Shown: positions 1 through 34,114, numbered from the stretch's first letter. The stretch: DNA of 64,000 nt from a virus (IMGVR_UViG_3300025659_000002:1-64000); one strand, 5' to 3'. Program-made: numbers and translations. The notes: generated by a model not told the origin, from the sequence alone.

Positions 1-277
1 TCAGAGAGTCATACGCATACCCTTTTAAAAAGTCCCTATACACGGGAGTGAAATAATAACATTTCTTTTTTAAAAAAGTTGCTTCTGAATCAGTTAACCG
101 TAGTGATCCCATTGCGTTAATATTGCTTATCAATTTTGTAGCAAACGAGTCACTAAACTCAACTGGAGTTCTCAATATCCACTTGTATTCTACTTCCAGG
201 TTTGGAAATTGCTGACAAACAAACATTTGTTGTGTAAATTTATATATGTCGTTATCTAAAATTGAATTAATTAACAT
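1..277 (-). CDS. nicotinate phosphoribosyltransferase-like (PncB N-terminal part); 3' end truncated by window edge
   Basis: Minus-strand ORF not in the track, starting at ATG (rev-comp of 275-277) and running off coordinate 1 with no stop. N-terminus MLINSILDNDIYKFTQQMFVCQQF resembles the PncB N-terminal LLDTDxYKLxMxQ motif (from memory). Confidence 0.4.
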   Translation of the reverse strand, partial: MLINSILDNDIYKFTQQMFVCQQFPNLEVEYKWILRTPVEFSDSFATKLISNINAMGSLRLTDSEATFLKKKCYYFTPVYRDFLKGYAYDSL

Positions 278-736: not shown

Positions 737-1044
737 CGTGCCTCGGGAATATTAATTACTTGAACTATTTCGCCATTGACAAAAAAAGTTAGTTTGTTGT
801 CACCTATTGACACACGATCCGCTAAGTATTCTTTGTCATATTTAATATTATAAGCTTTGTCATAAACTGTAAGAGTATAGGTAGTTCTAGAATCATTTCC
901 ATAACCTAATTCTGTTTTCGTACCATTCGCATCTATAACACCAGAATTAAAAAGCTTTGGTATTGCCACTGAGCCTATAATCCCTGCAATTACTAGAACA
1001 ATAATTAGTTCTATTATTGTAAATCCTTTTTTACTTCCATTCAT
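709..1044 (-). CDS. prepilin-type N-terminal domain protein (type IV pilin/pseudopilin-like)
   Basis: N-terminus MNGSKKGFTIIELIIVLVIAGIIG is the class-III signal / N-methylation motif (K-G-F-T-[LI]-I-E plus hydrophobic helix) of type IV pilins and ComGC-like pseudopilins. Confidence 0.55.
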   Translation of the reverse strand: MNGSKKGFTIIELIIVLVIAGIIGSVAIPKLFNSGVIDANGTKTELGYGNDSRTTYTLTVYDKAYNIKYDKEYLADRVSIGDNKLTFFVNGEIVQVINIPEARWEILEKVY

Positions 1045-1492
1045 TTTCTTTTAGTTCCTTTCTTACTTTCATTAATGCTTTTCCTAAAAGGTTTGTACCT
1101 TTACCATTTTTTCCGATGCCCCATATTGCGTCGTTCCATTCAGCCGCGTCTTCTATTAATTCTGCATCTTGTGTACATAGTAAAATCTTTTTGTAAAGAT
1201 CTATTTTGAATTTTTCTCTTAAGCACATAACCATAATGTCATATTTTACTTCTTCCCAATCTGGGCGAAGATTTACTTTATTACCCGCACGTTTAGATTT
1301 GCCAGGGGTTTTTAACTGTGCTATTTCTTTACGTATTGTGTTATTAAATGTTTTATGTGCTTGAAACGCATGCTCTACTGTTGGATATTCAATACCTTCT
1401 ATAGTAATAGGGGAATGTGCAAAATTAGAAAAATATTGATCATAGCCTGATGGCTTCTTTGCGGAGAAAATTATTTGGTTTGTGTTTTTCAT
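1031..1492 (-). CDS. NADAR / YbiA-like (DUF1768) domain protein
   Basis: YDQYFSNFAHSPITIEGIEYPTVEHAFQAHK matches the conserved NADAR core (SNF...G..Y.S.EH.fQa.K). Confidence 0.6.
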   Translation of the reverse strand: MKNTNQIIFSAKKPSGYDQYFSNFAHSPITIEGIEYPTVEHAFQAHKTFNNTIRKEIAQLKTPGKSKRAGNKVNLRPDWEEVKYDIMVMCLREKFKIDLYKKILLCTQDAELIEDAAEWNDAIWGIGKNGKGTNLLGKALMKVRKELKENEWK

Positions 1493-3593: not shown

Positions 3594-3602
3594 ATAAATT
3601 AG

Positions 3603-3674
3603 AGCCTAGGGAAGGAGTTGAACCTCCATTTCTCTTAGCGGACTAAGAGCGTCTTACCATTAGACGACCACGGC
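3603..3674 (-). tRNA. tRNA-like element with 8-nt (or self-pairing) anticodon loop, anticodon region AGTCCGCT
   Basis: GCCGTGG-TC-GTCTAATGGTAAGAC-G-CTCTT-AGTCCGCT-AAGAG-AAAT-GGAGG-TTCAACT-CCTTC-CCTAGGC-T. The anticodon arm is an 18-nt perfect palindrome (7-bp stem plus 4-nt loop, or 5-bp stem plus 8-nt loop). Two acceptor-stem mismatches. Confidence 0.35.
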
Positions 3675-3676
3675 GT

Positions 3677-3749
3677 TGGTTGGGGGTGTGGGATTTGAAC
3701 CCACATTCGCCTGCCTCTGCAGACGTCCTTTACGTTGGATGAGCCCCCA
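3677..3749 (-). tRNA. tRNA-like element with encoded 3' CCA and shortened anticodon loop
   Basis: TGGGGGC...GTGGG-TTCAAAT-CCCAC-ACCCCCA-A-CCA. The middle hairpin GTCTG-CAGAGG-CAGGC has a 4-6 nt loop, not a 7-nt anticodon loop. Confidence 0.35.
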
Positions 3750-4866: not shown

Positions 4867-5544
4867 TTACCAAGAAACTTTTCTTATTTTTAATAGAAAA
4901 TCATTTACTAATTTTGAGTTAGCTTCTTTTTTTGTAGACTTATTAAACGCGTCTTCTAGTTTTTCTTCCCAAGAGCTACAAGTTTTTATAACCTCTGGTA
5001 TAGTAGATTCGCCTTCCTTATATTTTCTGCAAAGAATGCCTACTTCTGTATCAGCTATTCTGGCTGTAAAATCGCCAGTTTGTAATAGTTCGTATCCATT
5101 ATATAACATTCTTAACCAGGCCGCTGATGATTTTCTTTTTCTAATGGTATCTAATTCTACATTTCCATTACTAAGGGCTTCATCATTTTCTAAAAGCTTT
5201 TTGCGTTGCGATTGAGCATAACCCCTGTACGAGTGGAAAACTAATTTAGAACTCCAAACGTCTGGAAATAGACTTCTTAACTCTTCACACCAGTTCTCGT
5301 TTTCTGTAGTAAATGTCGCTTTAAAAGTTTCCAGAATTGTAGGATTACTTCTTAATGCGAAATGTAGAAATCTAGCTAATTCCCAGGTATCTGCTGGATC
5401 CTTTGGATCGCTGGGCTGGTGCTCTGGTAAAGCTAAAATATTTGAAGTAGTCTCAATAAATACAGTTTTATAATCGAAATCACTTATAGGAGTATCTAAC
5501 CCATGCAATCTACTTCCTACTAACGCTCTCATTAATAATCTCAT
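4867..5544 (-). CDS. nucleotidyltransferase (Pol-beta superfamily, GS...SD[FI]D motif)
   Basis: N-terminal GSRLHGLDTPISDFDYK matches the minimal nucleotidyltransferase G[SG]x(9-13)Dh[DE] signature. Confidence 0.5.
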   Translation of the reverse strand: MRLLMRALVGSRLHGLDTPISDFDYKTVFIETTSNILALPEHQPSDPKDPADTWELARFLHFALRSNPTILETFKATFTTENENWCEELRSLFPDVWSSKLVFHSYRGYAQSQRKKLLENDEALSNGNVELDTIRKRKSSAAWLRMLYNGYELLQTGDFTARIADTEVGILCRKYKEGESTIPEVIKTCSSWEEKLEDAFNKSTKKEANSKLVNDFLLKIRKVSW

Positions 5545-5578
5545 TTATAATTCCCTATTGTTAATAATTGTTAAAAAA

Positions 5579-5612
5579 AAGACCCAGCGAGTGATCGCCG
5601 GGCCTAATTTCA
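5579..5612 (-). terminator. rho-independent terminator candidate
   Basis: On minus strand: GGCCCGGCGATCACTCGCTGGGTC hairpin followed by TTTTTTTT, immediately downstream of the Hsp20 gene. Confidence 0.45.
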
Positions 5613-5669
5613 AAGATATAAAGCGGTTAAGCTTTATAATGTCTTTTATTGACGATCTACATAGAAGCG

Positions 5670-6056
5670 CTAGCCTTCGCTAACTGTGAACTCCTGTGGA
5701 GTGAATTTCCCTTTTACAGGTATGGCGATGGTTAAAACACCACGAACTAGCGAACTAGTTAATTTTCCATAATTAAAATGTTCACCGTTCTGTAATGGAA
5801 ATTCGTTATAGAAACCTTTACAGAAAGTTCCTTTACCAATCTCTTTATCCGGTCCAGCTGTCACTAACAGGCGGTCATGAGTTGAAGGCGAATTGCCGAA
5901 CGCAGTTCCAGCCTTAGCTATTCTAATTTTAATGTTAGAAGCCTGATAACCTGGTACTAATAGCTCAACCATTACGTTTGGCTCGTTCCAGTACAGTACG
6001 AAGTCTACTGCATCATATTTTTTATCGTCACTTAATTTTGAGTATAAATTGCTCAT
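5670..6056 (-). CDS. small heat-shock protein (Hsp20 / alpha-crystallin family)
   Basis: 128 aa; C-terminal GVLTIAIPVKG is the sHSP I-x-I box; alpha-crystallin-like beta-strand region. Confidence 0.6.
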   Translation of the reverse strand: MSNLYSKLSDDKKYDAVDFVLYWNEPNVMVELLVPGYQASNIKIRIAKAGTAFGNSPSTHDRLLVTAGPDKEIGKGTFCKGFYNEFPLQNGEHFNYGKLTSSLVRGVLTIAIPVKGKFTPQEFTVSEG

Positions 6057-6068
6057 TTGTTGTCTTGA

Positions 6069-7760
6069 TTATTTCATTTTTAGTTGATACATCCGATTCA
6101 TTTCATAGAACCGAACAATATTGCCCTCGTGGGCCAGTGTCATCGACGACTTGATGGCAGAGTCTTTGTAGACCTGCACATCACTTGAAGCCTTAGCGCG
6201 AAACATTTCTAAAGCGCCATCTTCATGTATACTTATAGTTAATCCGTTAGGTAGGCAGATAAAATTCAACATATTATCTGCGTCCTTCAAGATTCTTATA
6301 TCATATTTTTTGAAATTTTCATCGAATACGATAATAAATTTATCATACTTGCTGCCTGATTGTCCTATTATCATACAAACCCTGTCTCGGCATTTTGCAT
6401 CAATTATCTTGTACTTATCTAGTTCAGGAATTGCTACAATTGCACATTTGTTGGGTGCGTATGGTAAATATAAATGAGTTTTACCTAAAATACTAGAACA
6501 TAATACTCCATCTAACATTTCTGTAGAATTATTGAATATTTCCCAAGTATTTAAAATATAAAACGTAGGCTTTGAGCCGGTATCTAATACATCTATTTCA
6601 AAAAATCTATCCTTGTTTACGCCATATAGCCTATTTTCGTATATCATAGTTTTTTCAACCTTAATATTTGTACTATGATAAGGAGATTGGCTATCTTCCA
6701 ATGATCTGTATACTAAAGATTCATCCTTAGTTTTCACAAGAAACGTCTTTTGAGACATACTGTGTGAAAAAACCTTGGAGGTGGTATCTTTAATATAACT
6801 ATTATTGTTATATATGACAACATCTTTTTTGGTATATATTATATACTGTCTACCAAAATAAGTGCAGTCAATTATGTCGCCAGGATAATCGTTTAATTGT
6901 TGTATTGTAAAATATTTGCTTCCGGTGTGTGTTGTTATTATAGGAGTTATTGGAAGTATAATGTACTGCCCTTTCATGTCTGGAGGAGTACTTCTATAAC
7001 CATTTTCAAATACTTCTTTAAACCAATCATAATAACTCTTAGGTATATTTGTAAAGTCCCTTACTGCGCCCGGAACACGCGTTTCAGGGTTAAAGATTGA
7101 TACGTTTGCTCTCATACGTTCTTCTAATGTAGCTCGTTTAAAGTGAGAATTCTTTCCCTTATATGGGTGAATTCCTATAAACAGTTGACAAGCTATTACA
7201 GCGAAGGAAAACCAATCTGAAATTTCTGTGAATTCTGTAGCATGCCAATCTCTAATAGAGGGCATAATTACTGTAGCTGGATAATTAGGAGTTTGCCATG
7301 AGTTTACATCTATACAATAAGCAGTAGTATGCTTTCTAGTTTCTATTAAATAATTTAATTCGTTACCATCGACCATTATTATGTCATGATCGTGCACATG
7401 ACTAATTGTATCCTTAATATTTGTAACTAATTTAGTAACGGTATCGTTATTTAAATTGTTTCTATTAAGATACGCAGATGTAAACATTCTTGGTAATGGA
7501 ATAGACTGAGGTACAGTCTGCATCATAAATCCTATTAACGTGTTTTTTGTAGTGTAAATTAAATTCTCAGGTTTTATAATGGTATTCTTAGTAAGAACTG
7601 ACAGTTCCCTAATTTTTTCTTCAGGTATCATAGTTTTTGGGTCATGAAATATTTTATAAGCTCTTCCACCTTTTACATATACTTTACCCTCTCCACCTTG
7701 AGCTACAAAATTAGAGTCTAATAATGATACTTGCCCCTTTCCTTGTACTAAAACCTTCAT
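6069..7760 (-). CDS. protein kinase-like protein (TerY-P triad kinase candidate)
   Basis: 563 aa. N-terminal AQGGEGKVYVKGGRAYK resembles a glycine-rich ATP loop with following Lys; HDHDIIMVDGNELN is catalytic-loop-like. ATGA overlap with the upstream PP2C gene. Confidence 0.45.
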   Translation of the reverse strand: MKVLVQGKGQVSLLDSNFVAQGGEGKVYVKGGRAYKIFHDPKTMIPEEKIRELSVLTKNTIIKPENLIYTTKNTLIGFMMQTVPQSIPLPRMFTSAYLNRNNLNNDTVTKLVTNIKDTISHVHDHDIIMVDGNELNYLIETRKHTTAYCIDVNSWQTPNYPATVIMPSIRDWHATEFTEISDWFSFAVIACQLFIGIHPYKGKNSHFKRATLEERMRANVSIFNPETRVPGAVRDFTNIPKSYYDWFKEVFENGYRSTPPDMKGQYIILPITPIITTHTGSKYFTIQQLNDYPGDIIDCTYFGRQYIIYTKKDVVIYNNNSYIKDTTSKVFSHSMSQKTFLVKTKDESLVYRSLEDSQSPYHSTNIKVEKTMIYENRLYGVNKDRFFEIDVLDTGSKPTFYILNTWEIFNNSTEMLDGVLCSSILGKTHLYLPYAPNKCAIVAIPELDKYKIIDAKCRDRVCMIIGQSGSKYDKFIIVFDENFKKYDIRILKDADNMLNFICLPNGLTISIHEDGALEMFRAKASSDVQVYKDSAIKSSMTLAHEGNIVRFYEMNRMYQLKMK

Positions 7761-8536
7761 AATATTATTCCAGCAATTCCAATATCGTCTGCGTTAGTAA
7801 TATAATTTCTATTCCAGGTTTTCTTAAGAAACCTTAGTTTTCTTACAGCGAATGCTCCTGCGGCACTTGGGAAATGAGTGATGATATCATCAATCACTAC
7901 TCTCTCTCCAGTATCCCTATCTATTACTTGGTCTATACCATCAGTAGTTAAAATTACCGAAGCTATCGGGTAATCAGGCTGAAATATAAAGGGCATTCCA
8001 GTTTCTAATGCTACATTGGTAGGATCCTCGTCACCATCATTCATGTGAACAACTGTTTGTCCTTTGTCCTTTAAACACTCTTTGTATTCTTCCTGATCTT
8101 TTCGAGTAATGTTATACGCAGGATAGTATGGAGTATTATGAGGTGATTGAATATCTATATGAAGCGGTCCTTCTTTTGAATCTAAGAAACAATGTCCATC
8201 TCCGGCCATAAGAATATAAAAGCTTTGTTTTTCTTTATTATAGATAGCTACCAACACAGTTGACAGCAGCATACGGCGGTCCAGGCCTTGGACATCAGTA
8301 TAACCTTTACATAATTGAAGTTGCCACTCTAATTTTTGACGAGTCAGCTCTCCAAATTCTCTAATGGCTTGTTCTACACTATGGGCTATTAATCTAGCTC
8401 CAAAATCTGTGTGAGGAGCGCTTGAACACCCATCACATACAATAATATAAGCTATCTCATCTGTTTCCCCATGAAGTGTATAATCTTCACAAACCCGATG
8501 AGTGGCCCCTTGAATAAAATGTGAATCTATGTTCAT
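7757..8536 (-). CDS. PP2C-family Ser/Thr phosphatase
   Basis: IVCDGCSS, LMAGDGH, LTTDGI metal-binding Asp/Gly motifs; 259 aa. TGA stop overlaps the kinase ATG. Confidence 0.6.
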   Translation of the reverse strand: MNIDSHFIQGATHRVCEDYTLHGETDEIAYIIVCDGCSSAPHTDFGARLIAHSVEQAIREFGELTRQKLEWQLQLCKGYTDVQGLDRRMLLSTVLVAIYNKEKQSFYILMAGDGHCFLDSKEGPLHIDIQSPHNTPYYPAYNITRKDQEEYKECLKDKGQTVVHMNDGDEDPTNVALETGMPFIFQPDYPIASVILTTDGIDQVIDRDTGERVVIDDIITHFPSAAGAFAVRKLRFLKKTWNRNYITNADDIGIAGIIL

Positions 8537-8565
8537 AGTTTTCCTTTTAATAAGAACGAACGTAA

Positions 8566-8633
8566 CAGCGCGGATTGGATTCGAACCAATGTCTAGGGTA
8601 TCCCCTAACTCTACCCTGCTGAGATACCGCCCC
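8566..8633 (-). tRNA. tRNA-like element (68 nt) with truncated anticodon arm
   Basis: GGGGCGG-TA-TCTCAGCAGGGTAGAG...ATTGG-TTCGAAT-CCAAT-CCGCGCT-G. The anticodon position holds TAGGG-GATA-CCCTA (4-nt loop). Lies between the vWA and PP2C genes. Confidence 0.35.
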
Positions 8634-8664
8634 GTTACGCCGTTTCTTACGTACGTTTTGTAAG

Positions 8665-9429
8665 TTAGAATTTCATACTAGCTTGAGCAGAAGGTCCGCC
8701 AGTGCCAAGTGAATGGCTCTGTGAACTAATGCTTTGGCTAATGAAATTCCCTAATTTTGCAAGAGTTTTAGCATTTGCATTGCCCGCATCAATATATTGC
8801 GTGAGGTCTGCATCATCTTTAAACTCTTTTAATAGTTGTGAAACCCTAGAGCCCCAACCATGGTTGCCGTCTGTGCCTATCCCGATTAATACGGAAATTA
8901 AAGATTCAATTGATTCTTCGGCACGTTTAATGGAGTGTATTCTGTCCTTTACATTAGTGGCTGTCATAGTCGAAGAATTATCATCTCCGTCTGTAATAAC
9001 ATACACGGCAGCATTTACACTGTATTCCTGGTCCGCTAGGGATTTACCATACTGTTCAATTGATCCGATCATATCATAAGTGGCATCAAACAGGTTAGTA
9101 GCTGCGTCAGGTACTAATTTCCCTGAATACTCACTTAAATCTATATCGTTTACAGGCTTAAATCCATGGATTTCCAAAATATCAGTCTGACTATTAAACA
9201 GTGTTACCCTAACAAGTAGATTTTCAGAACGTGCAGACATTTTACATGCCCCCACTATTTCTTCAATCATCTTTTGTAACATAGTTTCATAACCGCCCAC
9301 TGATCCGGTAATGTCAACGACTATACCTACTAAGGTATATTCGGAGGCTTCTAGTTCATCTAAGCCTATTGCTGAAAACTTAAAATTTCCAGCTCCTAAT
9401 AAGTCCACACTTTGCATGGTATCTACCAT
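8665..9429 (-). CDS. von Willebrand factor A domain protein (TerY-like)
   Basis: VVDITGSVGG MIDAS-like DxTGS motif; 254 aa; first gene of the vWA-PP2C-kinase triad. Confidence 0.6.
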   Translation of the reverse strand: MVDTMQSVDLLGAGNFKFSAIGLDELEASEYTLVGIVVDITGSVGGYETMLQKMIEEIVGACKMSARSENLLVRVTLFNSQTDILEIHGFKPVNDIDLSEYSGKLVPDAATNLFDATYDMIGSIEQYGKSLADQEYSVNAAVYVITDGDDNSSTMTATNVKDRIHSIKRAEESIESLISVLIGIGTDGNHGWGSRVSQLLKEFKDDADLTQYIDAGNANAKTLAKLGNFISQSISSQSHSLGTGGPSAQASMKF

Positions 9430-9459
9430 TGATAATCTCCTTTATCTTTGTGTGTTTGT

Positions 9460-10323
9460 TTATTTCAAAAAGTCTTCAGCTTTACAGATCTGCATACCGC
9501 GTGAAACCATTTCCGTTACAAAGTCGGTACCCAATTTCTCAAACCCAGTAACATTTGAAGAAGTGTCTTCAAGCAGTACTAGTTTTTTGATATTCTCTTC
9601 TCCGAAGTTGTCTGCAATATCTTTAACTGTATTAGCTACACAGTGTGATAGAGCCTGACCTGAAAGGGCAATTATGTCTGCGTCTTTTAAAAGTTTTAAA
9701 AGAGTGACGTTTAACTGCGTAGTAGGATCTTCATCGTCAGGTACATCAGCAATAACGCCAGAGTAATGTTCTGTCCAAGGGTTGTGTCCTTTTGTAACAT
9801 AGTTTATTCTGCGTTTTCTGCTTTCTTCCCAGGCTTCAAGTTCTGCGTTTACAACATCTACTACATTGTGGCCCCATGTGCCCACTTTACAATGTGGTGG
9901 CCATATACACAGAAGGTATCTGTCGTTGTCTTGGAGAGCTTGCAGGTAAGCTCTGGCTCTTGGAATTCGATCTGGGCTAGTCGGTGTCCAAACTGATCCG
10001 TTTAAGTCGTCTAGACTTATAAGTGTAAACGGGCCCGGATGTTCTCCAGCACTATTCATCCAAAATAATGGATGCGAAATATCCAACAATTGGTGGGTAT
10101 CTAGCGTCACGTGGATCCCAGTAATTTTACCTCTTAAGCGGTTAAGCACCATAGCTAACCTCTCAGAGTCCTCATAAGCCCCCGGTACCGGTAATTCTGG
10201 TTCTGGAAGTCGTAATCCTATATCCGCCAAATTTATGCCGGCTTTTTGAAGTAAGACTAAATCATTGTTTCGATCCATAAAAGAGTTTTGTGGATCAATT
10301 ATTAAGAAGTGCAATTTTTGCAT
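9460..10323 (-). CDS. isochorismatase-family amidohydrolase, nicotinamidase (PncA)-like
   Basis: LIIDPQNSF (catalytic Asp region), WPPHCKVGTWGH, and SGQALSHCV (nucleophile Cys) are typical of PncA/Pnc1-type nicotinamidases. Confidence 0.6.
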   Translation of the reverse strand: MQKLHFLIIDPQNSFMDRNNDLVLLQKAGINLADIGLRLPEPELPVPGAYEDSERLAMVLNRLRGKITGIHVTLDTHQLLDISHPLFWMNSAGEHPGPFTLISLDDLNGSVWTPTSPDRIPRARAYLQALQDNDRYLLCIWPPHCKVGTWGHNVVDVVNAELEAWEESRKRRINYVTKGHNPWTEHYSGVIADVPDDEDPTTQLNVTLLKLLKDADIIALSGQALSHCVANTVKDIADNFGEENIKKLVLLEDTSSNVTGFEKLGTDFVTEMVSRGMQICKAEDFLK

Positions 10324-10377
10324 TTTGTTTTTTTTCCTTTTCTAACTTGTATGTTATTATTTCGTCAGTTTATTAAT

Positions 10378-11292
10378 TTAGAAGTTTCCGTAGTTTACTT
10401 GGAAACATTGTAGACCTAAGTCTTTACGCCATAGACCAACTACTTGGTCTCTATCATCAAACACGCAAAATACGTTGTATTTATCTTTAACGTGTTCATC
10501 ATAAAGTTTGCGTTTAAGAATTGAATCTCTTATATTATGCTCAAACAATGGTCTCATGAACATCTTCCAATGAGGAAACGGAAGGTTTGCTTTCAAAAAC
10601 TGTCTAGTTTCTGAAAGGTATTTTTCCGATCTTCCAGATAAAAAGATTATTTGGTATCCCTGTTTGTCCATAACGTGAAGAATTTCCCCCAAAATCGCAT
10701 TGTAAGTATCGTTCTCACAAGTAGAGGCGTCATAAGGGTTACGGCCTTTAAGGAATGCCATCGTGCCGTCTAAGTCACAAATGATTGCCTTAGGTAAGCC
10801 GTCTACCAACTCAACCGTGCCTGGAGGCTCAGGATAGTCGTGAGGCTCATCTTTCTTTAGAAACCTACTGTACATATCATAAATAACTTTAGAGCCTACA
10901 TGGGCCGATCCTGTACGTAATGCGTCTCGATCAATGGCATCAAATACATCTGTAGGGAATTCTCTAACCACAACTAATACGTCGTGCTTAACTTCCCGTA
11001 AAATGTTATAGTCCGCCACTATTTTTCTAATATGCTCCTCATTTGAGCTGTGTAAGTTTGTATCATCTACGAATACTGATCTTCCGGCATCTAAGTATCT
11101 AAAGATTAAAGAGTCTCTAATTGCTTTAATTATTTTCTCATTTCCTTTAGAGTATACTCCACCATCAACCATGCTTCGTAGACTATCCCTATTTACACGT
11201 TTGTATGTATCTGGCATTTTATCCATCATATCTACGGCATACGAAGTCTTACCGCTTGCGGGTAACCCCCGTAGTATTATTACTTGTCTCAT
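10378..11292 (-). CDS. pnk: polynucleotide 5'-kinase / 3'-phosphatase (T4 Pnk-like)
   Basis: N-terminal P-loop GLPASGKTS plus C-terminal HAD motif I CDLDGTM; same two-domain architecture as T4 Pnk. Confidence 0.7.
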   Translation of the reverse strand: MRQVIILRGLPASGKTSYAVDMMDKMPDTYKRVNRDSLRSMVDGGVYSKGNEKIIKAIRDSLIFRYLDAGRSVFVDDTNLHSSNEEHIRKIVADYNILREVKHDVLVVVREFPTDVFDAIDRDALRTGSAHVGSKVIYDMYSRFLKKDEPHDYPEPPGTVELVDGLPKAIICDLDGTMAFLKGRNPYDASTCENDTYNAILGEILHVMDKQGYQIIFLSGRSEKYLSETRQFLKANLPFPHWKMFMRPLFEHNIRDSILKRKLYDEHVKDKYNVFCVFDDRDQVVGLWRKDLGLQCFQVNYGNF

Positions 11293-11700: not shown

Positions 11701-12765
11701 TTATTCTCCAAACTTAATTAAGAAGTCAGGGTTAATTACTTTAAAACTAAAGCTACCATCTCTCGCTCTAATCACAATTCCCTCTCTTGGGATATCAGGA
11801 TTTAGAAGGCTTGGGCCTTTAGAAAGCTCTACTAATTCGTCTACTGTATGGTTTAACACCATCTTTGGATTAAGGACAGGTACAGTATTAAATATTCTAT
11901 CTAACCCTCGTACGCGAACTTCCCCCTCAGTTGTGTAGTCCCCAAATATAAGATTTAGAAAGCTCTCAATACTTCCAAAGCCACCATCTTGTATAGTAAA
12001 AGCGTTAAACATTTTTACTTCTGTAGCAGACAATTTGTATTTATTTTTCTGAATCCCTGGCCCCAGTAATTCTCCTTGGAAAATTACATTTATACCAAGT
12101 TTAGACATTTTCTCTTCTGCGTCAATATCTCTAGCGACTTTCCAGAAAGAATTTTTGTCATTCTCTATTAGGTCAAGCTTCCGACTGCATACTCCGAAAG
12201 GTGTTGCTTTTCGGTAGTTAGGTGCATAATAAAAGGTAGATGACGATCCATCTAATTTCTCTGTTATGTAGCACTCTGTTCCTGCCCATTCTTTTATTTC
12301 ATCTACAAGATTCTGTACACGTTCTTCATCCGTCTTAGGAATCCAGGAAGGTCTGTGGCCTTTAATCTGGCCACTTAAGCATGCTGGAATGGGTGCTTCA
12401 TATTTTACTACTTTCAAAAGTTCACTTACGTCTGTTCCCACTTCGGGGCCATCGGCGAGCTCTTCGAAAGTATCTAATGGCATGGCTAGCCCTTGACTAA
12501 TTTGCTTACGCAATTTTATAGTTCGTAAGCGATAACCTCTTGTGCCGTCATCTATTGTTTTGACACCGTTTTTCTTTAAGAATTCAAACGGCTCTATTTC
12601 TGGCAACAAAGAGTCCACTTCAAAGTAGACGCATTTATCACCTATTTGAAATTCCCCCTTCTTAACTACTAGATGCCAGCCTTTTACAGTTGCTTTTTCA
12701 ATTACATCTGCTCCAGAGATAGGCTCTAAATTAGCTATGAGTTGGATTGTTGCTAAATGTCTCAT
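11701..12765 (-). CDS. ATP-dependent RNA ligase (KxDG nucleotidyltransferase family)
   Basis: ITEKLDGSSSTFYY contains the ligase motif I K-x-D-G; 354 aa; adjacent to Pnk. Confidence 0.55.
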   Translation of the reverse strand: MRHLATIQLIANLEPISGADVIEKATVKGWHLVVKKGEFQIGDKCVYFEVDSLLPEIEPFEFLKKNGVKTIDDGTRGYRLRTIKLRKQISQGLAMPLDTFEELADGPEVGTDVSELLKVVKYEAPIPACLSGQIKGHRPSWIPKTDEERVQNLVDEIKEWAGTECYITEKLDGSSSTFYYAPNYRKATPFGVCSRKLDLIENDKNSFWKVARDIDAEEKMSKLGINVIFQGELLGPGIQKNKYKLSATEVKMFNAFTIQDGGFGSIESFLNLIFGDYTTEGEVRVRGLDRIFNTVPVLNPKMVLNHTVDELVELSKGPSLLNPDIPREGIVIRARDGSFSFKVINPDFLIKFGE

Positions 12766-13288: not shown

Positions 13289-13469
13289 TTGCAGCTATAC
13301 CGCCTACAGCTAAAAATAATAAGACGAAGCCAAGCCACAGCGGGGCAGTTATCCACCACCAACTCCATGTAATGACTCCAACTAACTTTAGGACAAGTAA
13401 TACTATAAATAGTATGAATCCGGGATTTTTCATTTTTTCTCCGTTTGTTTTGGTTTTAAATATTTCCAA
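13269..13469 (-). CDS. small membrane protein (66 aa)
   Basis: ORF track; two hydrophobic helices. Confidence 0.4.
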   Translation of the reverse strand: MEIFKTKTNGEKMKNPGFILFIVLLVLKLVGVITWSWWWITAPLWLGFVLLFLAVGGIAAIASWLD

Positions 13470-14503
13470 ATTAAGGGCTTTATGTTTTTCCCTTGTAACA
13501 TTGTAAATACTAAAGAAATTATTTGTTTATTTCCAATATTTATGACTTTTTCTGCTACTGCTTTGGAAGTTCGTTTTTTCATATCAATTGATTCTGGGAA
13601 ACTAGTTATAAGGTGCATGTATTGTTTACAAGCAGTGTTTGCTAATATCACATAATTCTCTCTAAAGTTATCTATAGAGGTATGAAGCCATTTATAGTAT
13701 TCATCTGGTACAATATCAATTAACTCTTGTATATCTAATTCTGGATCTGATAAGTATTTCCATACCGTTTTATCATTGCAAAGCTGCAATATACGGTGAT
13801 GTCTTACATACCAGTCAAATTTTACTTTAACTCTGAACCCGTTATCATATGCTAACACAAATCCTTCTTTGTTTTCTTGATTTGGTACATTATATAACTC
13901 ACTTACATCGCAATCATGTTCATATAGCTCTGTTCTTGGTATACAAGTAGTAACAGCGTGCAACCCTATCTCTCTGCCAGTAAACGTATCGCGTACTGCC
14001 AATAGCCTTAGGTCGCTCTCTGGGTAGGTGATACAGGTCATCCCCCCTTTCTTAAGAGTAGGTGTTAAGAACTCATAGCAGTATGTGAAGTCCTCCCTTA
14101 TAGTAAGGTCAGGGTATTTTTCTTCTAAGACTACATTGGCCTCTGTAATATATTCATTATCAAAAGAGCCTCTTGTAGATTTAATTAAATGCCCCCTCCA
14201 CATAACCATTATAAATAGACATCCGTCTAGTTTATTAAAAATGCTGTAGTGGTCATCTGGGAGCTCGATACCTAGTCCTTCTAATTCTGTATAGTTGAAA
14301 AATTTTCTAAAAGGGTTGGCTACTACAGTTCCATATTCATCTAGTATAAGACCCCTACATCTAGTAGTGGTATCGTTCCAATTTCGAGCATACTGTGTGG
14401 CATGGGTATAATTATATATCCAAAGTGGAAACTCTGGATGTTTTCTTCGCTTTACCCACCCTTCCTTTATTTGGGTTTCTAAAACTGTTAGGACTGTATT
14501 CAT
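13430..14503 (-). CDS. second KxDG nucleotidyltransferase (RNA ligase 2-like)
   Basis: FNKLDGCLFIM motif I; 357 aa; a second ligase paralog as in the T4 rnlA/rnlB arrangement. Confidence 0.5.
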   Translation of the reverse strand: MNTVLTVLETQIKEGWVKRRKHPEFPLWIYNYTHATQYARNWNDTTTRCRGLILDEYGTVVANPFRKFFNYTELEGLGIELPDDHYSIFNKLDGCLFIMVMWRGHLIKSTRGSFDNEYITEANVVLEEKYPDLTIREDFTYCYEFLTPTLKKGGMTCITYPESDLRLLAVRDTFTGREIGLHAVTTCIPRTELYEHDCDVSELYNVPNQENKEGFVLAYDNGFRVKVKFDWYVRHHRILQLCNDKTVWKYLSDPELDIQELIDIVPDEYYKWLHTSIDNFRENYVILANTACKQYMHLITSFPESIDMKKRTSKAVAEKVINIGNKQIISLVFTMLQGKNIKPLIWKYLKPKQTEKK

Positions 14504-14506
14504 TAT

Positions 14507-15523
14507 TTACCTTTTTGTTTTAAAGCCTATATTATGAGAAGAAATTGCTACTTCAGACGTAGCTACCTCTTGCCTTAGTTTATTAATTCTGTCTATTGAT
14601 ACTTTATAATCTGTATCTAACATTATGACGCTTACTATGAGTTCTTTAATATGTGCGAAAGACCAGTTATTAGTATCTTTTACCCAAGTATTTAATTCTT
14701 TACCCTTTAAACTACTCTTTAATTGTAAATATTTTTTACGAGTAATTTCATCTGGGTAATCCTGGTGCATAACCCTGTCAAACCTCGAAGGTCTATTTTT
14801 TAAAGATGTAGGAAGCCGTTCTGGATAAGCAGTTGTAGCTAAAAATACAACATTATTTATTACTCCTATTCCATCTAGTAAATCCAGAATCTTTGCTTCA
14901 GCTACTGGATCCATTATAATTCTGTCAATGTCTTCAATTATAACAAGTATGGGCCTATTCCCCTCAATATCTCTTATTCTAGTAATACCTTCTGATACTA
15001 CAAAAGAGCTATCAAATACTAAATATCCTTTTTGAATACAATTTGACATTACTATTTTCATTGTACTATTTTTTCCTGAGCCGTCTCCACCATAAATTAG
15101 AATTCCTCTTTTATGGCTTTCTCCCCAAGCTTTATAAGCTGATCCAAGTTTCCAAAATTTTCCTAATTCTAATAATATTTCTTCAGCTATTGAATTACTA
15201 AATAAAATTAGGTCCGAGGCTTCTAGCTCAATATTTAAGAACTCTACGGCGGCTCCTCTAGATTCTAATACTTCATAATACCCTGCTGGTAAAATTTTTA
15301 CAAAAGCTGAAGCTGGTAAAAAAGTTCCTTGTTCATTGGTTAAATATCCAGAGGTTACGTTTTCAAGATTTAGGTTTTTATCTTCGGGGAGTAGGGCGCT
15401 ATTCTGGCTATCTTCGGATAAAAAAGTTTCAGGTTCACTATTATTATATAATTCTGAACTTGTAATCTCTTTTTTCCTAAATTTATCAATTTGTTTTTTA
15501 TCTACTTCTATTTTGCTAGTCAT
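14507..15523 (-). CDS. AAA-type ATPase
   Basis: Walker A ILIYGGDGSGKNST, Walker B PILVIIEDIDR. Confidence 0.55.
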   Translation of the reverse strand: MTSKIEVDKKQIDKFRKKEITSSELYNNSEPETFLSEDSQNSALLPEDKNLNLENVTSGYLTNEQGTFLPASAFVKILPAGYYEVLESRGAAVEFLNIELEASDLILFSNSIAEEILLELGKFWKLGSAYKAWGESHKRGILIYGGDGSGKNSTMKIVMSNCIQKGYLVFDSSFVVSEGITRIRDIEGNRPILVIIEDIDRIIMDPVAEAKILDLLDGIGVINNVVFLATTAYPERLPTSLKNRPSRFDRVMHQDYPDEITRKKYLQLKSSLKGKELNTWVKDTNNWSFAHIKELIVSVIMLDTDYKVSIDRINKLRQEVATSEVAISSHNIGFKTKR

Positions 15524-19278: not shown

Positions 19279-20238
19279 CTATTCAAACAATACTTTTAAG
19301 ACACCATTTCTGCTGGTCATCATTATGTTGGTCGACGGTGTTACCGCTTTCTCCAACGTTTCCAACGATTTCACAAAATTATAAAAGTCTGGATCTGCGC
19401 CATAAGCTTCTGCGTAGATCTTGGTAGCTGTTGCATCAGCTGTACCTTTAATCATCTCAGACTCATTATAAGCCTCAGACATTAGATTTTTTATTTTGTT
19501 ATTTCGTCTTCCAGCTAATTCCTGTCTCTCTTTCTGCCCCTGGGCGCGATATTTCTGAGCAATTCGTGACTGCTCTGAAACCATTCTATCCTGTATCTTT
19601 TTCTTGACTACATTGGTAAAATTTACCCGTTTCAGCTGAACGTCTATAATTTCGATTCCTAATTTACGTTCGGCTAGTTTTGATTGAGCCATTGCCAGGA
19701 TTTTAGCCACAATTTCGTCTCGGATTCCTGGTTGCATGAAGCTGGACTCGGTGCCCTGATCTTCAGTATTTGTATCTGAGGTTTCCTGCGAACGTAACAC
19801 CATCTCCCGATTACTAGACCGTACAATTTGAGACATTACATGCTCAGCAATTATGTCACGTGAGCTACCATCTATTACATCATCAATTCGAGATTGTGCC
19901 TGGTTTTCACGACCACCTACAGCTTTATGATATTCCTGAGGATCACTAATTCTCCATCTGGCAAATACATCAATAAAGACATATTTATTATCTTTTGTAG
20001 GTAATTCTTCGGCATCCCCATCCCATTCCAGAATACGTTTGTCATAAACATGCTTATTCTGAATGTAAGGAATCTTCAGGTGAACCCCTGCGTCAGTAAT
20101 CGCTTCGCCGCGAATTTTACCAAACTGAGTAATCACCACTTGTTCTTTTTCATCGATAACGTATAAACCGCTAAAGAATCCAAAAAGCAGGAACATAAAG
20201 AGGAATATGAAAGCCCCTTTTTTAACTGTCAATTCCAT
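19279..20238 (-). CDS. hflC: HflC-like SPFH/band-7 membrane protein
   Basis: N-terminal TM helix then YVIDEKEQVVITQFGK...; SPFH domain; coiled-coil C-terminus; partner gene directly upstream. Confidence 0.65.
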   Translation of the reverse strand: MELTVKKGAFIFLFMFLLFGFFSGLYVIDEKEQVVITQFGKIRGEAITDAGVHLKIPYIQNKHVYDKRILEWDGDAEELPTKDNKYVFIDVFARWRISDPQEYHKAVGGRENQAQSRIDDVIDGSSRDIIAEHVMSQIVRSSNREMVLRSQETSDTNTEDQGTESSFMQPGIRDEIVAKILAMAQSKLAERKLGIEIIDVQLKRVNFTNVVKKKIQDRMVSEQSRIAQKYRAQGQKERQELAGRRNNKIKNLMSEAYNESEMIKGTADATATKIYAEAYGADPDFYNFVKSLETLEKAVTPSTNIMMTSRNGVLKVLFE

Positions 20239-20240
20239 AA

Positions 20241-21164
20241 CTAGTTGCCTCCCAAATTAAAGTGTGGTAGTGCTGAAATGTTTTCATCAATAAACCAAAC
20301 GTTTTCTGCTGTCGGTAGAATTTTCTGCATTGTTTCAAAATATAAACGGTCCTTAGTTACCTTAGGATTTACTTTATACTCATTATATACTGCAGTAAAC
20401 CAAGCTGTGTTACCTTTAGCTTCGTTAACTCTTTCGATAGCATAACCATTTGCTTCCTCAACCAGTCTTGCCGCTTCACCTTCAGTTTCTGTTACCTGCT
20501 TGGTGTAGTCTTCCCTGGCCTCATTAATAGTAGTCTCCTGCGTTTGCTCAGCAGAATTTACTTCTTTAAAGGCAGCCTGAACTAGCGGAGGTGGATCAAC
20601 AGTTTTCAACTGAACCAACTCTACGATAATGCCGCATTCATATAATGTTAGCATATCCTGCAGGTGAGTCTTGGCCGTATTGGCTATAGCTACACGATCT
20701 TTTTGTAATACTTCATAGAAGGAGCGATCCCCTACCATTAAACGCATTACACTTTCCGAACCGTCTCGCAAGAGCTCTTCAGGGTTTCTAGTGGCAAACA
20801 AATACTGATAAGGATCATTAATCTTATATTGTACAACCCATTGTAGGTACACAATATTTAAATCCCCTGTCAGCATTTCTGATTCTTCGACGAATCCGCT
20901 TTTGTTGTAGTTGGTATTTTTACCAGCAGATACAGTTCTAAATCCAAATTCGGCTTTATATTCATACTCAGTTCTCACTTTGTATGCTTCATCAATCCCG
21001 AACGGAATCTTAAATTGTAGTCCTCCAACAGCGGTAGTACTATTGTACTTCCCCAAACGGAGCACGACTGCTTGTTCATTAGCGTCTAGCGTGTATGCAG
21101 CTGAGAATGTACCCCAGAGCACTACAACGACTATAGCTATTAAAATGCCTAGCGCTTTGTTCAT
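20241..21164 (-). CDS. hflK: HflK-like SPFH/band-7 membrane protein
   Basis: N-terminal TM then YTLDANEQAVVLRLGKY; SPFH domain; E/Q-rich coiled coil. Confidence 0.65.
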   Translation of the reverse strand: MNKALGILIAIVVVVLWGTFSAAYTLDANEQAVVLRLGKYNSTTAVGGLQFKIPFGIDEAYKVRTEYEYKAEFGFRTVSAGKNTNYNKSGFVEESEMLTGDLNIVYLQWVVQYKINDPYQYLFATRNPEELLRDGSESVMRLMVGDRSFYEVLQKDRVAIANTAKTHLQDMLTLYECGIIVELVQLKTVDPPPLVQAAFKEVNSAEQTQETTINEAREDYTKQVTETEGEAARLVEEANGYAIERVNEAKGNTAWFTAVYNEYKVNPKVTKDRLYFETMQKILPTAENVWFIDENISALPHFNLGGN

Positions 21165-21367: not shown

Positions 21368-21895
21368 CTACTCCTTATCTAAATATCCCGGAAGGTTATA
21401 AGTCTTTATTAATTTTAGAAACGCTTCCAAATTACCCATAGCGTCATCGATAGAGCTATGTGTATGAGGAGTATCTCTCAGGTGTTTGAAGTTTTCAAAA
21501 GGAGTTTGAACCAACCCTTTAAAAAGACTTCCTAGGTTTGCACTTGAGTGCCCAAAGGGATTTATCCCTAAGTACTTATGACAGTAATAATTTATGAACT
21601 GCCAATCATGCCCATTGTTATCAGATATAAACATCGGCCTTCCTTTTGAAGTTTCTTTTACAAACTCTGCTAAAGTTTTTATAGCTTCTTCAGGATCTCC
21701 GTATCCAAGAGTTTCTTCCCTAGTTACCCCTATCTTTTCTAAAGCTTCAGGTTTCCATAGGTTAGTAATAGGCCTTAGGCGCTCGTGGACGGACTCGTCC
21801 TTCGCTTCCGTGACCCTTATTGCTGCAAACTCTACCATAGAGAATATTCCAGGGCATTCCCCGTCAGACTCTATGTCTATCATGAAATAACTCAT
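21368..21895 (-). CDS. DEDD-family 3'-5' exonuclease (DnaQ/oligoribonuclease-like)
   Basis: Exo I MIDIESDGE, Exo II FISDNNGHDWQF, Exo III HSSIDDAMGN. Confidence 0.6.
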   Translation of the reverse strand: MSYFMIDIESDGECPGIFSMVEFAAIRVTEAKDESVHERLRPITNLWKPEALEKIGVTREETLGYGDPEEAIKTLAEFVKETSKGRPMFISDNNGHDWQFINYYCHKYLGINPFGHSSANLGSLFKGLVQTPFENFKHLRDTPHTHSSIDDAMGNLEAFLKLIKTYNLPGYLDKE

Positions 21896-24817: not shown

Positions 24818-25537
24818 TTAATTATTTTCTATTAAATATACATGTTTTTCAATGTAATCTTTACCCCTAGCTGAGGCAAACACTGGGATATTCATATCTG
24901 GGTGGTTATTGTCTATACAGTACCCTTGTCGTCTTAAACTAGAGAAGTCATCAAAATTAATTCCTATCTTTTTGGATAGAAGATGTTTTATATTCTCAAC
25001 ACTTCTCATGTGAAGTTCTTTCTGAGAGAAATGCTCTCTTCCTACCATCTGGACAGCGTTGCGTATAGCATCTTGTTGTCTCCAGATATAATAGTTTGTC
25101 ACTTCATCTTTTGCCAAATTAAAAGCTCTAGCATCAAACTGCACTTTTTCGCCAGTTATTGAATAAAAGTTAGTGCTTACGATAGCTGCTGTAATTGATA
25201 CTATTTTCTGTATGGAATTATTGAACCACGACTGTGTGTTATGAGTTTTATAATCCGTTAATAAAAAACTGATCTCATCAGATTGACCATAGCAAAACTT
25301 TGTTGACTGCATATCTTCCATAGAAGCCCTAGCAGTTTCCATCATATTTGCAGAGAATCCGGTAGACCATCCTCTTCCATATAATTTTCTTGTAAGAGTG
25401 TGAAACGCTCTACCGTCTACTCTTATTATTACTGGCATTCTTTTGTGAAGCTTGTATTTATAGGTAGCTTCATAATCTTTCATACGATCACCTAGTGGGG
25501 TTCCGTCTCCCATATTATTTAGTCTCCTCTTTTTCAT
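24818..25537 (-). CDS. Thg1-like 3'-5' nucleotidyltransferase (tRNA-His guanylyltransferase family)
   Basis: PVIIRVDGRAFHTLT (RxDGRxF motif) and YGQSDEISFLL (catalytic SDE); 239 aa. Confidence 0.65.
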   Translation of the reverse strand: MKKRRLNNMGDGTPLGDRMKDYEATYKYKLHKRMPVIIRVDGRAFHTLTRKLYGRGWSTGFSANMMETARASMEDMQSTKFCYGQSDEISFLLTDYKTHNTQSWFNNSIQKIVSITAAIVSTNFYSITGEKVQFDARAFNLAKDEVTNYYIWRQQDAIRNAVQMVGREHFSQKELHMRSVENIKHLLSKKIGINFDDFSSLRRQGYCIDNNHPDMNIPVFASARGKDYIEKHVYLIENN

Positions 25538-33014: not shown

Positions 33015-34114
33015 AATACGCTTGTAAGATGGCACAGAGTGCACGGGCGTAAGGCCAATTTTTCAGGTGGCTTTCCTGGTATTCTTTTTATGGAAGATGA
33101 GAGTGGCTGAGGGGTAAACTCTTCTTCCGAGGGATGCAACTCCCTTTGCGAGACTTATTAATCCCCGCACCACCTACGTTAAGTAGGAAGCCCTATCTTA
33201 AATTCTTTTCCAAATTGAAGGCTCTAGCCTTGCAACTCCTTCGGATAGACACCCAACGTTTTTATTACGTCTTTGGCCCAGTTTTATGAAGTTTGTACTT
33301 TTCCTGAGAATACAGTTAGTACGGTATATCTTTAAAGGGATCATTTCAATTCCCCTCGTTTCCACGCAGACTTACGTCGTCGTAATACACCAATCACAGC
33401 TCCAGGTATGGAGCCAGGTCTTTCCACTTACATTAACTCTACAATTTCACGACTATCTTAGCTGCCGCCAAGCTTAACCGCTTCCTTATAAATACTGCTG
33501 CAACCCTTGCGAGGCGCAGAGCTCGACGTTATACAGGCCGATATTAGTGATCTTTTATTATAAGCAGCCAGGAATCTAATTGCTTTCATTATAAATGACG
33601 AGAATCGAACTCGTGATCTACGGATTAATATTCCGTTGCTCTACCAACTGAGCTACATTATGGTTTTTCTGTGATTGGGAGGACGCGTTCCCGGTTGTGG
33701 TTACGTAGTTTTCAGCCACATAATGCCACTCGCCCTCGTAAGTCATTAGCCATGACAGCCTCCGATCCTTCATCATAGTAGTTGTCTCTTCTTGACTTAG
33801 AAGCCAATGAAGGCCTCAATATCTTGATCCCGACAAACTATATAATTGATAACCCGCTTGACAGACAGGATATCTTGCGATTACTATACAGACATTTCTG
33901 CCTACCCCTCAGGGGATACGTATCTCGACCTTCACGCCTCGCAGTTAGCCTGGAGTGTTGGACTATTTTTTACAAGATAAATAGAAGTTCGCAGTGTATA
34001 AATGTTTGCACTCCCGAAGGAGAACAACGCAATGCCAGGTATAATTTCACAGACCCGACTGCTTTTAGTCCCATTGCTGGGGTTATCTTTAACTGGATGT
34101 CATACCACCCAGGT
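33015..34114 (-). ncRNA. GC-enriched ORF-poor island, candidate large structured ncRNA with embedded tRNA-like element
   Basis: About 1.1 kb at roughly 45% GC against about 33% background, with no convincing ORF. Bounded by promoter-like motifs at 34146 (oriented toward it) and 32983. Confidence 0.35.
33590..33662 (-). tRNA. degenerate tRNA-like element (anticodon loop ATATTAA; acceptor stem does not pair)
   Basis: CATAATG-TA-GCTCAGTTGGTAGAGC-A-ACGGA-ATATTAA-TCCGT-AGATC-ACGAG-TTCGATT-CTCGT-CATTTAT. Canonical D-, anticodon- and T-arms but unpaired acceptor arms (both sides contain ATAATG as a direct repeat). Confidence 0.35.

Follow-up and report, generated by a model that had tools for sequence, protein, structure and literature searches.

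The question raised by the locus described here is what a phage would gain from a protein kinase, a protein phosphatase and a vWA-domain protein encoded next to one another. The three genes are located at positions 6069-9429, on the minus strand, of a 64,000-nucleotide (nt) stretch of viral DNA, IMGVR_UViG_3300025659_000002:1-64000, which is referred to below, at its full length, as the window. The initial annotation had described these genes as a free-standing three-gene Ter/defence module; the conserved unit, however, proves to have a fourth, leading gene, which encodes a nicotinamidase-like hydrolase, lies directly upstream of the vWA gene and was absent from that description. In our best reading, held with moderate confidence, the resulting four-gene cassette couples a phosphorylation switch to Preiss-Handler salvage of nicotinamide adenine dinucleotide (NAD+). 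The elements of the cassette are as follows.

9460-10323, minus strand: nicotinamidase-like (PncA/Pnc1-type) isochorismatase-fold hydrolase, 287 amino acids (aa), first gene of the cassette (profiles, motifs)
8665-9429, minus strand: vWA-domain protein, YegL/TerY-like, 254 aa (AlphaFold2 model, Foldseek, hhalign, MIDAS (metal ion-dependent adhesion site) residues)
8551-8650, minus strand: structured intergenic RNA, a helix of ~23 base pairs (bp) enclosing a tRNA-like core (RNA fold)
8566-8633, minus strand: anticodon-less tRNA-like element, 68 nt (Rfam RF00005, custom covariance model)
7757-8536, minus strand: PP2C-type Ser/Thr phosphatase, 259 aa (Pfam PP2C_2, metal residues, hhalign)
6981-7760, minus strand: protein kinase domain, YegI-like, aa 1-260 of the kinase protein (motifs, Foldseek, hhalign)
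6069-6911, minus strand: C-terminal all-beta, WD40-like beta-propeller, aa ~284-563 of the same protein, and its stop codon (AlphaFold2 model, Foldseek)

The three open reading frames (ORFs) of the triad were recovered exactly as first described (6069-7760, 563 aa; 7757-8536, 259 aa; 8665-9429, 254 aa; all on the minus strand), and so was the translational coupling claimed for the last two genes, the PP2C stop codon and the kinase start codon overlapping in the sequence ATGA (...ATA TTA TGA / ATG AAG). That they form a co-directional vWA, PP2C and Ser/Thr kinase triad is supported by fold, motif and profile evidence for all three.

Homologous loci, labelled L###, were fetched through the kinase, and their partner genes were found by tblastn and iterated hidden Markov model searches. 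The cassette, in the order pncA-like, vWA, PP2C, kinase, is found both in huge phages and in bacterial chromosomes. Of 80 IMG/VR loci, 74 possess all four genes, as do 51 of 80 loci from GTDB genomes and three of the four huge-phage loci examined first. Where the set is complete, gene order and orientation agree in 71 of 77 viral loci and in 45 of 51 genome loci. Clustering of the kinases at 95% identity leaves 74 viral and 79 genome clusters, of which 68 and 50, respectively, have the full set, while a reciprocal search starting from the nicotinamidase returned it in 68 of 79 viral loci. The triad, whose conservation in related phages the initial annotation had proposed to check, thus recurs in huge phages, and in most of the IMG/VR loci fetched it is accompanied by the nicotinamidase gene. 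Cellular cassettes, which include copies on complete 4-6 Mb Capsulimonadaceae chromosomes, are compact (median gaps of 38, 63 and -4 nt); phage cassettes are often split by inserted genes, with the pncA-like-to-vWA junction remaining tight (48 nt at the median). No other member of the cassette is as tightly linked or as well conserved as the nicotinamidase, and the four genes most likely constitute a single operon. In all, the distinct huge-phage and bacterial loci with the cassette number well over a hundred.

The genes that surround the cassette belong, time and again, to NAD+ metabolism. For example, the gene immediately following the kinase in the cellular loci L118, L127 and L153 encodes PncB (nicotinate phosphoribosyltransferase), scoring above the NCBIfam equivalog cutoff, while this position is occupied by NadE (NAD synthase) in L144 and by a PARP with a WGR domain in L116. 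Across the 84 viral and 83 genome loci that make up the 167 loci of our neighbour counts, PncB is encoded within 10 kb of the cassette in 29 viral and 22 genome loci, and NadE in 20 and 8, respectively. The genes most commonly inserted within phage cassettes specify PncB (nine loci) and glutamine-dependent NadE (five loci), followed by a MazG plus cytidylyltransferase-like (nucleotidyltransferase) NadD-type protein (three loci), and a bacterial variant reads SIR2, then pncA-like, PP2C and NrtR. The recurrent neighbours are therefore PncB, NadE, NadD-like proteins, NrtR, SIR2 and PARP, rather than genes of Ter or restriction systems. We consider it quite likely, from this gene context, that the cassette is linked to NAD+ salvage.

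In two loci on Armatimonadota chromosomes, a gene for a WGR-domain protein adjoins the cassette: in L116 (11718-12989) a bacterial PARP that also has a PARP_reg domain, and in L118 (3675-6677) a protein of 1000 aa in which WGR is combined with ATP-dependent DNA ligase domains. These PARP and DNA-ligase neighbours suggest that DNA damage and ADP-ribosylation are linked to the salvage operon.

The window itself contains two further genes of this kind.

1-277, minus strand: 5' part of a PncB gene that runs off the left edge (TIGR01514/PRK05321 match, 92-aa fragment, E=1e-20)
1031-1492, minus strand: NADAR-domain protein (Pfam PF08719 on an identical contig, L169 16269-16730)

Beyond the left edge, an extended contig was used that is 100% identical to the window over their overlap. 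On this contig PncB is complete (381 aa, NAPRTase_N and NAPRTase domains), and beyond it are encoded HAD_SAK_2, nucleoside deoxyribosyltransferase-like, NAD synthase and NUDIX proteins, such that NADAR, PncB, NadE and NUDIX are all located within 12 kb on the phage contig of the window.

The assignment of the leading gene as a nicotinamidase is based on its family. The window copy returned no usable match in Pfam, NCBIfam or PHROGs; 19 of 20 homologues match Pfam Isochorismatase, many are named 'nicotinamidase/pyrazinamidase' by JGI, and the family profile, when compared with the PDB, retrieved yeast Pnc1 (2h0r) with E=3e-11, its best matches all being nicotinamidases. The catalytic triad D10, K178 and C228 is invariant in 20 homologues. 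The same holds for D75, H77 and H144, whose counterparts in the alignment with Pnc1 lie in its zinc-binding RDWH and WPVHC motifs. The pncA-like genes found here belong to a subfamily of their own (~265 aa), and in nearly every case the triad follows them. On these grounds the product of 9460-10323 is a nicotinamidase-type enzyme, predicted to hydrolyse nicotinamide to nicotinate, and synteny with PncB supports this prediction.

The vWA protein of the window likewise gave nothing usable in Pfam, NCBIfam or PHROGs, and a sequence-profile search of its family against the PDB produced no match. The AlphaFold2 model of the 254-aa protein (predicted local distance difference test score, pLDDT, of 91.6), when submitted to Foldseek, retrieved integrin I and vWF-A domains with E values down to 6e-9. 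The MIDAS is invariant in the family, being formed by D39-x-T-x-S43 (D-x-T/S-x-S), T111 and D147. Homologues are named YegL by JGI, or in some cases carry PF00092, and hhalign comparison of the family profile with E. coli YegL gave a moderate probability of 65% (E=6e-5) with the MIDAS motifs aligned. The protein ends in a conserved Ser-rich helix and tail (aa 229-247, FISQSISSQSHSLGTGGPS), in which S233 and S238 are invariant and S231, S235 and S247 nearly so.

The PP2C phosphatase is the member recognized most readily, matching PF13672 (PP2C_2) with 49.4 bits against a cutoff of 24 (E=5e-13). Its metal-binding residues D18, D35-G36, G112-D113-G114, D199-G200 and D250-D251 are invariant in 20 homologues. 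Comparison with E. coli PphC is significant at the profile level (hhalign probability 93.6%, E=2e-7), and BLASTP of the two proteins is not. Pfam by itself thus bears out the triad in part: PP2C_2 is above cutoff, whereas the kinase falls below it (21 bits against 31.7) and vWA is without a match in the window copies.

The kinase fold of the 563-aa protein was the point on which the initial annotation had staked its claim beforehand, and the claim survives, since both motifs and model show this fold to be present. Invariant in 67 full-length homologues are a GGEG loop, K36, E52, D131-G-N-E-x-N136 and D151, together with D182-W183, G196-x-H-P and R215; read against known kinases, these residues correspond to the complete eukaryote-type protein kinase motif set, including the substrate-binding C-lobe. 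In the AlphaFold model (pLDDT of 91.2), a kinase domain (aa 1-260) precedes an all-beta domain (aa 284-563) of ~28 strands with a pLDDT near 90. Foldseek returned IRAK4, CDKs and Lyn for the former and the Nup133 and Hsv2 propellers for the latter, and the kinase and WD40 half of LRRK2 was the top match spanning both, such that the model (pLDDT ~91) agrees with IRAK4, CDK and LRRK2 kinases. LRRK2 shares with this protein the succession of kinase and beta-propeller, but differs in its partners and in sequence (~12% identity), and there is no evidence that the fusion shares descent. RqkA of D. radiodurans is another Ser/Thr kinase fused to a C-terminal propeller. The hhalign comparison of the kinase family profile with E. 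coli YegI gave a probability of 97.1% (E=5.5e-11). The protein identities of the four cassette members are, in our judgement, hardly in doubt, and all four, as judged from their alignments, keep their catalytic or metal-binding residues.

How might these four proteins act together? The kinase and the PP2C phosphatase would act in opposition to set how far a protein of the cassette is phosphorylated, the conserved Ser-rich C-terminal helix of the vWA protein being the best substrate candidate. It is the corresponding helix that governs MIDAS affinity in integrin I domains, and phosphorylation of the vWA tail could therefore gate binding by the vWA protein. The vWA protein would then bind or release the nicotinamidase, or assemble the salvage enzymes, and the switch would turn on conversion of nicotinamide to nicotinate and onwards to NAD+ via PncB, NadD and NadE. 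The propeller, a presumed sensor or docking domain, may perceive the cue that serves as trigger. In a phage, NAD+ would in this manner be rebuilt from nicotinamide freed by NAD+-degrading host immunity or, alternatively, by the phage's own NAD+-consuming enzymes. This specific switch model is put forward tentatively, with somewhat less than even confidence.

NAD+ depletion is a major bacterial anti-phage strategy, and phages are known to reconstitute NAD+ by means of NARP1 (Adps and Namat), NARP2 (Nampt and Nmnat) and NARP3 (PnuC and NadR). The role proposed here would be analogous, in that phage enzymes rebuild NAD+ from breakdown products against NAD+-depleting immunity; the window route differs, however, in being deamidating, proceeding via nicotinate and requiring NadE, and no embedded protein-phosphorylation module has been described for NARP1-3. 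A deamidating route with a built-in switch would add regulation to such counter-measures. Jumbo phages carrying Preiss-Handler genes ('NAD-jumbo phages') are also known (PMC11662467), and the phage contig of the window resembles them in its PncA-like, PncB, NadE and NUDIX genes, while kinase, phosphatase and vWA protein go unmentioned in that report (PMC11662467). It is conceivable, although we would not expect it, that huge phages and many bacteria share a previously undescribed, signal-gated NAD+ reconstitution pathway in which a propeller-kinase and PP2C toggle a vWA/MIDAS adaptor, and the adaptor turns on a dedicated nicotinamidase and, further along, PncB, NadD and NadE while NAD+ is under destruction. 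If true, this would be a phage NAD+ counter-defence under regulation, the first of its kind; it would also assign, for the first time, a physiological role to a triad of the YegI/PphC/YegL type, and provide a testable function for TerY-P/YegIKL triads, whose roles are unknown even in E. coli. Our literature search found no link between pncA and vWA, PP2C or kinase. The system lends itself to a direct test by heterologous expression because it comprises just four genes with intact active sites, and because compact bacterial operons are available.

A number of observations weigh against a phosphorylation switch coupled to NAD+ salvage. The proposed substrate, signal and direction of regulation are inferences throughout, and we know of no precedent for Ser/Thr phospho-control of PncA. 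The vWA and nicotinamidase-like proteins of the window are below Pfam thresholds, their identities resting on family profiles, motifs and predicted structure. PncB lies 5.8 kb from the cassette in the window, beyond a tRNA cluster, and the position of the cassette amid RNA-repair genes (PNKP, two RNA ligases and RlaP) suggests a different theme. Loci were sampled by sequence similarity, and metagenome-assembled genome (MAG) bins may hold phage contigs just as IMG/VR may hold cellular fragments. Finally, 29 of 79 genome clusters lack the full set in the DNA fetched for them, and the kinase is found alone in 17 loci; the kinase may therefore have other targets.

Regarding such dispersed arrangements, the kinase-propeller gene is solitary at one locus in giant sulfur bacteria, Desulfobacterales and some Gammaproteobacteria (L097; L089, L094-L096). 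In GCA_024235135.1, the one assembly in which both kinds of locus were observed, the kinase (L097) and a nicotinamidase-vWA pair (L179, beside TerD) are located on different contigs, and the parts can therefore act in trans. A cassette on a 546-kb contig of a GTDB 'Bacteriovoracaceae' MAG (L132) has at least ten tRNAs within the 5 kb upstream of it, and this contig looks like that of a huge phage binned into a bacterial MAG.

Two features follow the kinase gene in the window.

5670-6056, minus strand: 128-aa ORF directly after the kinase, with weak Hsp20/Hsp14 similarity (Pfam E=0.085, NCBIfam E=0.006)
5580-5605, minus strand: terminator-like hairpin and T-run (11-bp stem with 7 GC pairs, then TTTTTTT; consensus match only)

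The Hsp20-like gene was considered as a fifth member of the cassette and rejected, as it is without a homologue in any other locus. The hairpin that follows it is likely, by its consensus, to mark the 3' end of the transcription unit.

What, then, of the RNA between the vWA and PP2C genes? The 68-nt tRNA-like element claimed there was verified, Rfam tRNA (RF00005) matching 8566-8633 on the minus strand with 37.6 bits (gathering threshold 29; E=8e-5 in a 20-kb search), and a custom covariance model scoring it at 41 bits. Besides tRNA, Rfam returned a weak SpF41 match (E=0.18) and none below E=0.1. The element is not among the 12 tRNAs called by ARAGORN in the window, because a GAUA of 4 nt replaces the last anticodon-stem pair and the 7-nt loop; its cloverleaf is otherwise composed of an acceptor stem, a D arm, a canonical T arm and an anticodon-arm stem of 5-6 bp with the GAUA tetraloop. 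The 128-nt spacer in which it resides (8537-8664) has a folding energy of -40.9 kcal/mol (z=-3.8 against shuffles), its minimum free energy structure being this cloverleaf, and the ~23-bp helix consists of 16 bp of flanking sequence plus the acceptor stem. This flank pairing (-12.8 kcal/mol) is the strongest among 13 tRNA and tRNA-like elements of the window that were compared, the values for 11 ordinary window tRNAs being -0.2 to -4.3 kcal/mol.

That the element, placed inside the operon by the initial annotation, is a component of the module was not upheld. A scan of 133 other cassettes with a covariance model built from the tRNAs of the window detected a tRNA-like within just one, at a different junction, and the vWA-PP2C junction was without such an element in all 133; the element is therefore not part of the cassette. 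In that one cassette (L011, 4482-4599) a 118-nt tRNA-like with a long internal insertion is situated between the nicotinamidase and vWA genes. Being one of three such RNAs in the window, the element at 8566-8633 is therefore a passenger in this lineage; it is a lineage-specific insertion, which tRNA-processing enzymes or RNase III may cut out.

The other two RNAs adjoin each other within the tRNA cluster, shortly upstream of tRNA-Asp, both on the minus strand: 3602-3674 is an anticodon-less cloverleaf with a 7-bp stem and a UCCG loop, reported by ARAGORN as 'tRNA-???' with anticodon 'cc', and 3679-3749, with a stem of 6-7 bp and an AGAG loop, was missed by ARAGORN (custom model 35.3 bits; -32.4 kcal/mol cloverleaf). 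In cassette-bearing huge phages, tRNA-likes with a shortened, capped anticodon arm (e.g., GAUC-GCAA-GAUC) were found at L064 5967-6041 and L038 5948-6009, 1-1.5 kb upstream of the nicotinamidase gene, which hints at a recurrent class of capped tRNA-likes. The three tetraloop-capped, anticodon-less RNAs of the window could be phage non-coding RNAs of a new class, connected with tRNA-targeting conflicts. ARAGORN missed a further tRNA-like, at 33589-33661 on the minus strand (custom model 46.9 bits, GC content 0.37); its loop is of the normal 7 nt (AUAUUAA), and its acceptor stem is weak and A/U-rich.

The element at 8566-8633 might instead be a decayed tRNA pseudogene without function, as its lack of an anticodon loop and a G3-G70 mismatch would indicate, and no relatives of it emerged when IMG/VR was scanned for exact matches and JGI metagenomes for a degenerate pattern, the hits being only unrelated tRNA-Ser variable arms and similar sequences. 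We nevertheless find decay doubtful, given that the residues of the tRNA tertiary core are kept (U8, A14, G18-G19, the T-loop GGUUCGAAUCC and C48), that the 16-bp in-register flank helix is unique among the 13 elements, and that two more tetraloop-capped tRNA-likes in the same genome, with similar ones in huge-phage loci, argue for a selected class. The bacterial Y RNA YrlA and mascRNA are tRNA-like non-coding RNAs without an anticodon loop, and the present element resembles them in several respects: its core, with T and D arms, is tRNA-shaped, its anticodon arm is short, and its 5' and 3' flanks pair into a long closing helix; it differs in that no Ro60/TROVE gene was called here, that Rfam matches it to tRNA alone, and that it is found inside a protein-coding operon.

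The foremost alternative for the proteins is that they constitute a free-standing triad of the TerY-P type, acting in superinfection exclusion or host-protein phosphorylation, with the nicotinamidase as a mere neighbour. Known TerY-P triads comprise vWA, PP2C and a kinase with a Zn-ribbon (CoCoNuT type), and are linked to Ter, restriction or CoCoNuT systems (PMC11090510), while stand-alone antiphage TerY-P-like triads have been reported by Gao 2020, with a kinase bearing an OB fold, as quoted in PMC11090510. The window triad shares with TerY-P the three domain types, the gene order vWA-PP2C-kinase and a common strand, and resembles E. coli YegL-PphC-YegI in the profile-level homology of all three families and in being encoded in the same order; one bacterial pncA-vWA pair (L179) is moreover adjoined by TerD. 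TerY-P kinship is accordingly upheld by domains, gene order and E. coli profile matches, but not by the kinase tail, nor by gene context: the window kinase ends in a WD40-like propeller of ~280 aa where TerY-P has a Zn-ribbon or OB fold, a nicotinamidase leads the cassette, and the context is one of NAD+ salvage rather than Ter, restriction or CoCoNuT genes, the single TerD being the sole exception among the neighbours examined for the window and a subset of loci. PADLOC matched no TerY-P model to the three window proteins, a result that is uninformative because the positive control, E. coli YegI/PphC/YegL, also matches none. A nicotinamidase that was a mere neighbour would be hard to reconcile with its tight linkage (a phage median of 48 nt to vWA; the link is kept in 68 of 79 loci of the reciprocal search) or with the other NAD+ enzymes inserted within the cassette, and we regard a free-standing triad as improbable. 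In the cassette a phospho-switch resembling TerY-P is probably attached to a dedicated nicotinamidase as part of NAD+ salvage, the switch part being our inference.

Still less credence is given to the possibility that the 287-aa enzyme is an isochorismatase-fold amidase acting on some other substrate, such as a modified nucleotide or a peptide amide, the cassette then producing or degrading a signalling metabolite that has no part in bulk NAD+ salvage. The protein is ~70-80 aa longer than classical PncA and has conserved insertions, and the window copy goes unrecognized by Pfam and NCBIfam, which would suit such a function; on the other hand, neither the catalytic triad nor any of the three Zn ligands typical of nicotinamidases varies, the best PDB matches consist of nicotinamidases without exception, and the commonest neighbour, PncB, is the next enzyme of the pathway.

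The surroundings of the cassette in the window give rise to one more alternative. Positions ~1-25,540 form an island in which RNA-repair and NAD genes are mixed and which includes eight tRNAs and the cassette itself; its further members are listed below.

4867-5544: RlaP
10378-11292: PNKP
11701-12765: PHA02142-type RNA ligase
13430-14503: T4 Rnl1-type RNA ligase
14507-15523: AAA protein
19279-21164: two Band_7 proteins
21368-21895: RNase T
24818-25537: Thg1-like protein

That the cassette serves phage tRNA or RNA repair, with the tRNA-like RNA and the vWA protein acting like a Y RNA and Ro60, itself a protein with a vWA domain, is highly improbable. In its favour, PNKP and two RNA ligases border the cassette in one direction, RlaP and the tRNA cluster in the other; genes for RtcB and a CCA-adding enzyme are situated downstream in L004; tRNAs occur within 10 kb in 30 of 84 viral loci; and the long closing stem, tRNA-like core and missing anticodon loop of 8566-8633 recall the architecture of bacterial YrlA. 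Against it, relatives of the window's RlaP and of its RNA ligase are found near a mere 8 and 5 of 167 loci against 51 of 167 for PncB, the vWA-PP2C junction of other cassettes is without a tRNA-like element, and the compact cellular operons are without RNA-repair neighbours. The Y RNA/Ro idea was rejected, as no TROVE/Ro60 gene was called in the window or the flanking contig and Rfam lent it no support.

The contig as a whole looks, by its gene content, like that of a phage. In line with the phage origin claimed for it, a GpA_ATPase terminase-like ORF is present on the same contig 8.6 kb beyond the right edge of the window, and the helicase encoded at 61919-63319 has its best matches in isolated phages. 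The 64-kb window contains no structural genes, and a nucleotide search of positions 5500-10400 against 50,697 phage records returned no match. Identical copies of the window's proteins recur on contigs of up to 211 kb from many samples, one such contig being labelled as a Scalindua MAG in NCBI, where it is probably mis-binned. Finally, a 114-aa ORF at window positions 57,5xx-57,9xx (L178 1233-1577) has a Pfam Mito_carr match, which is unusual in a phage.

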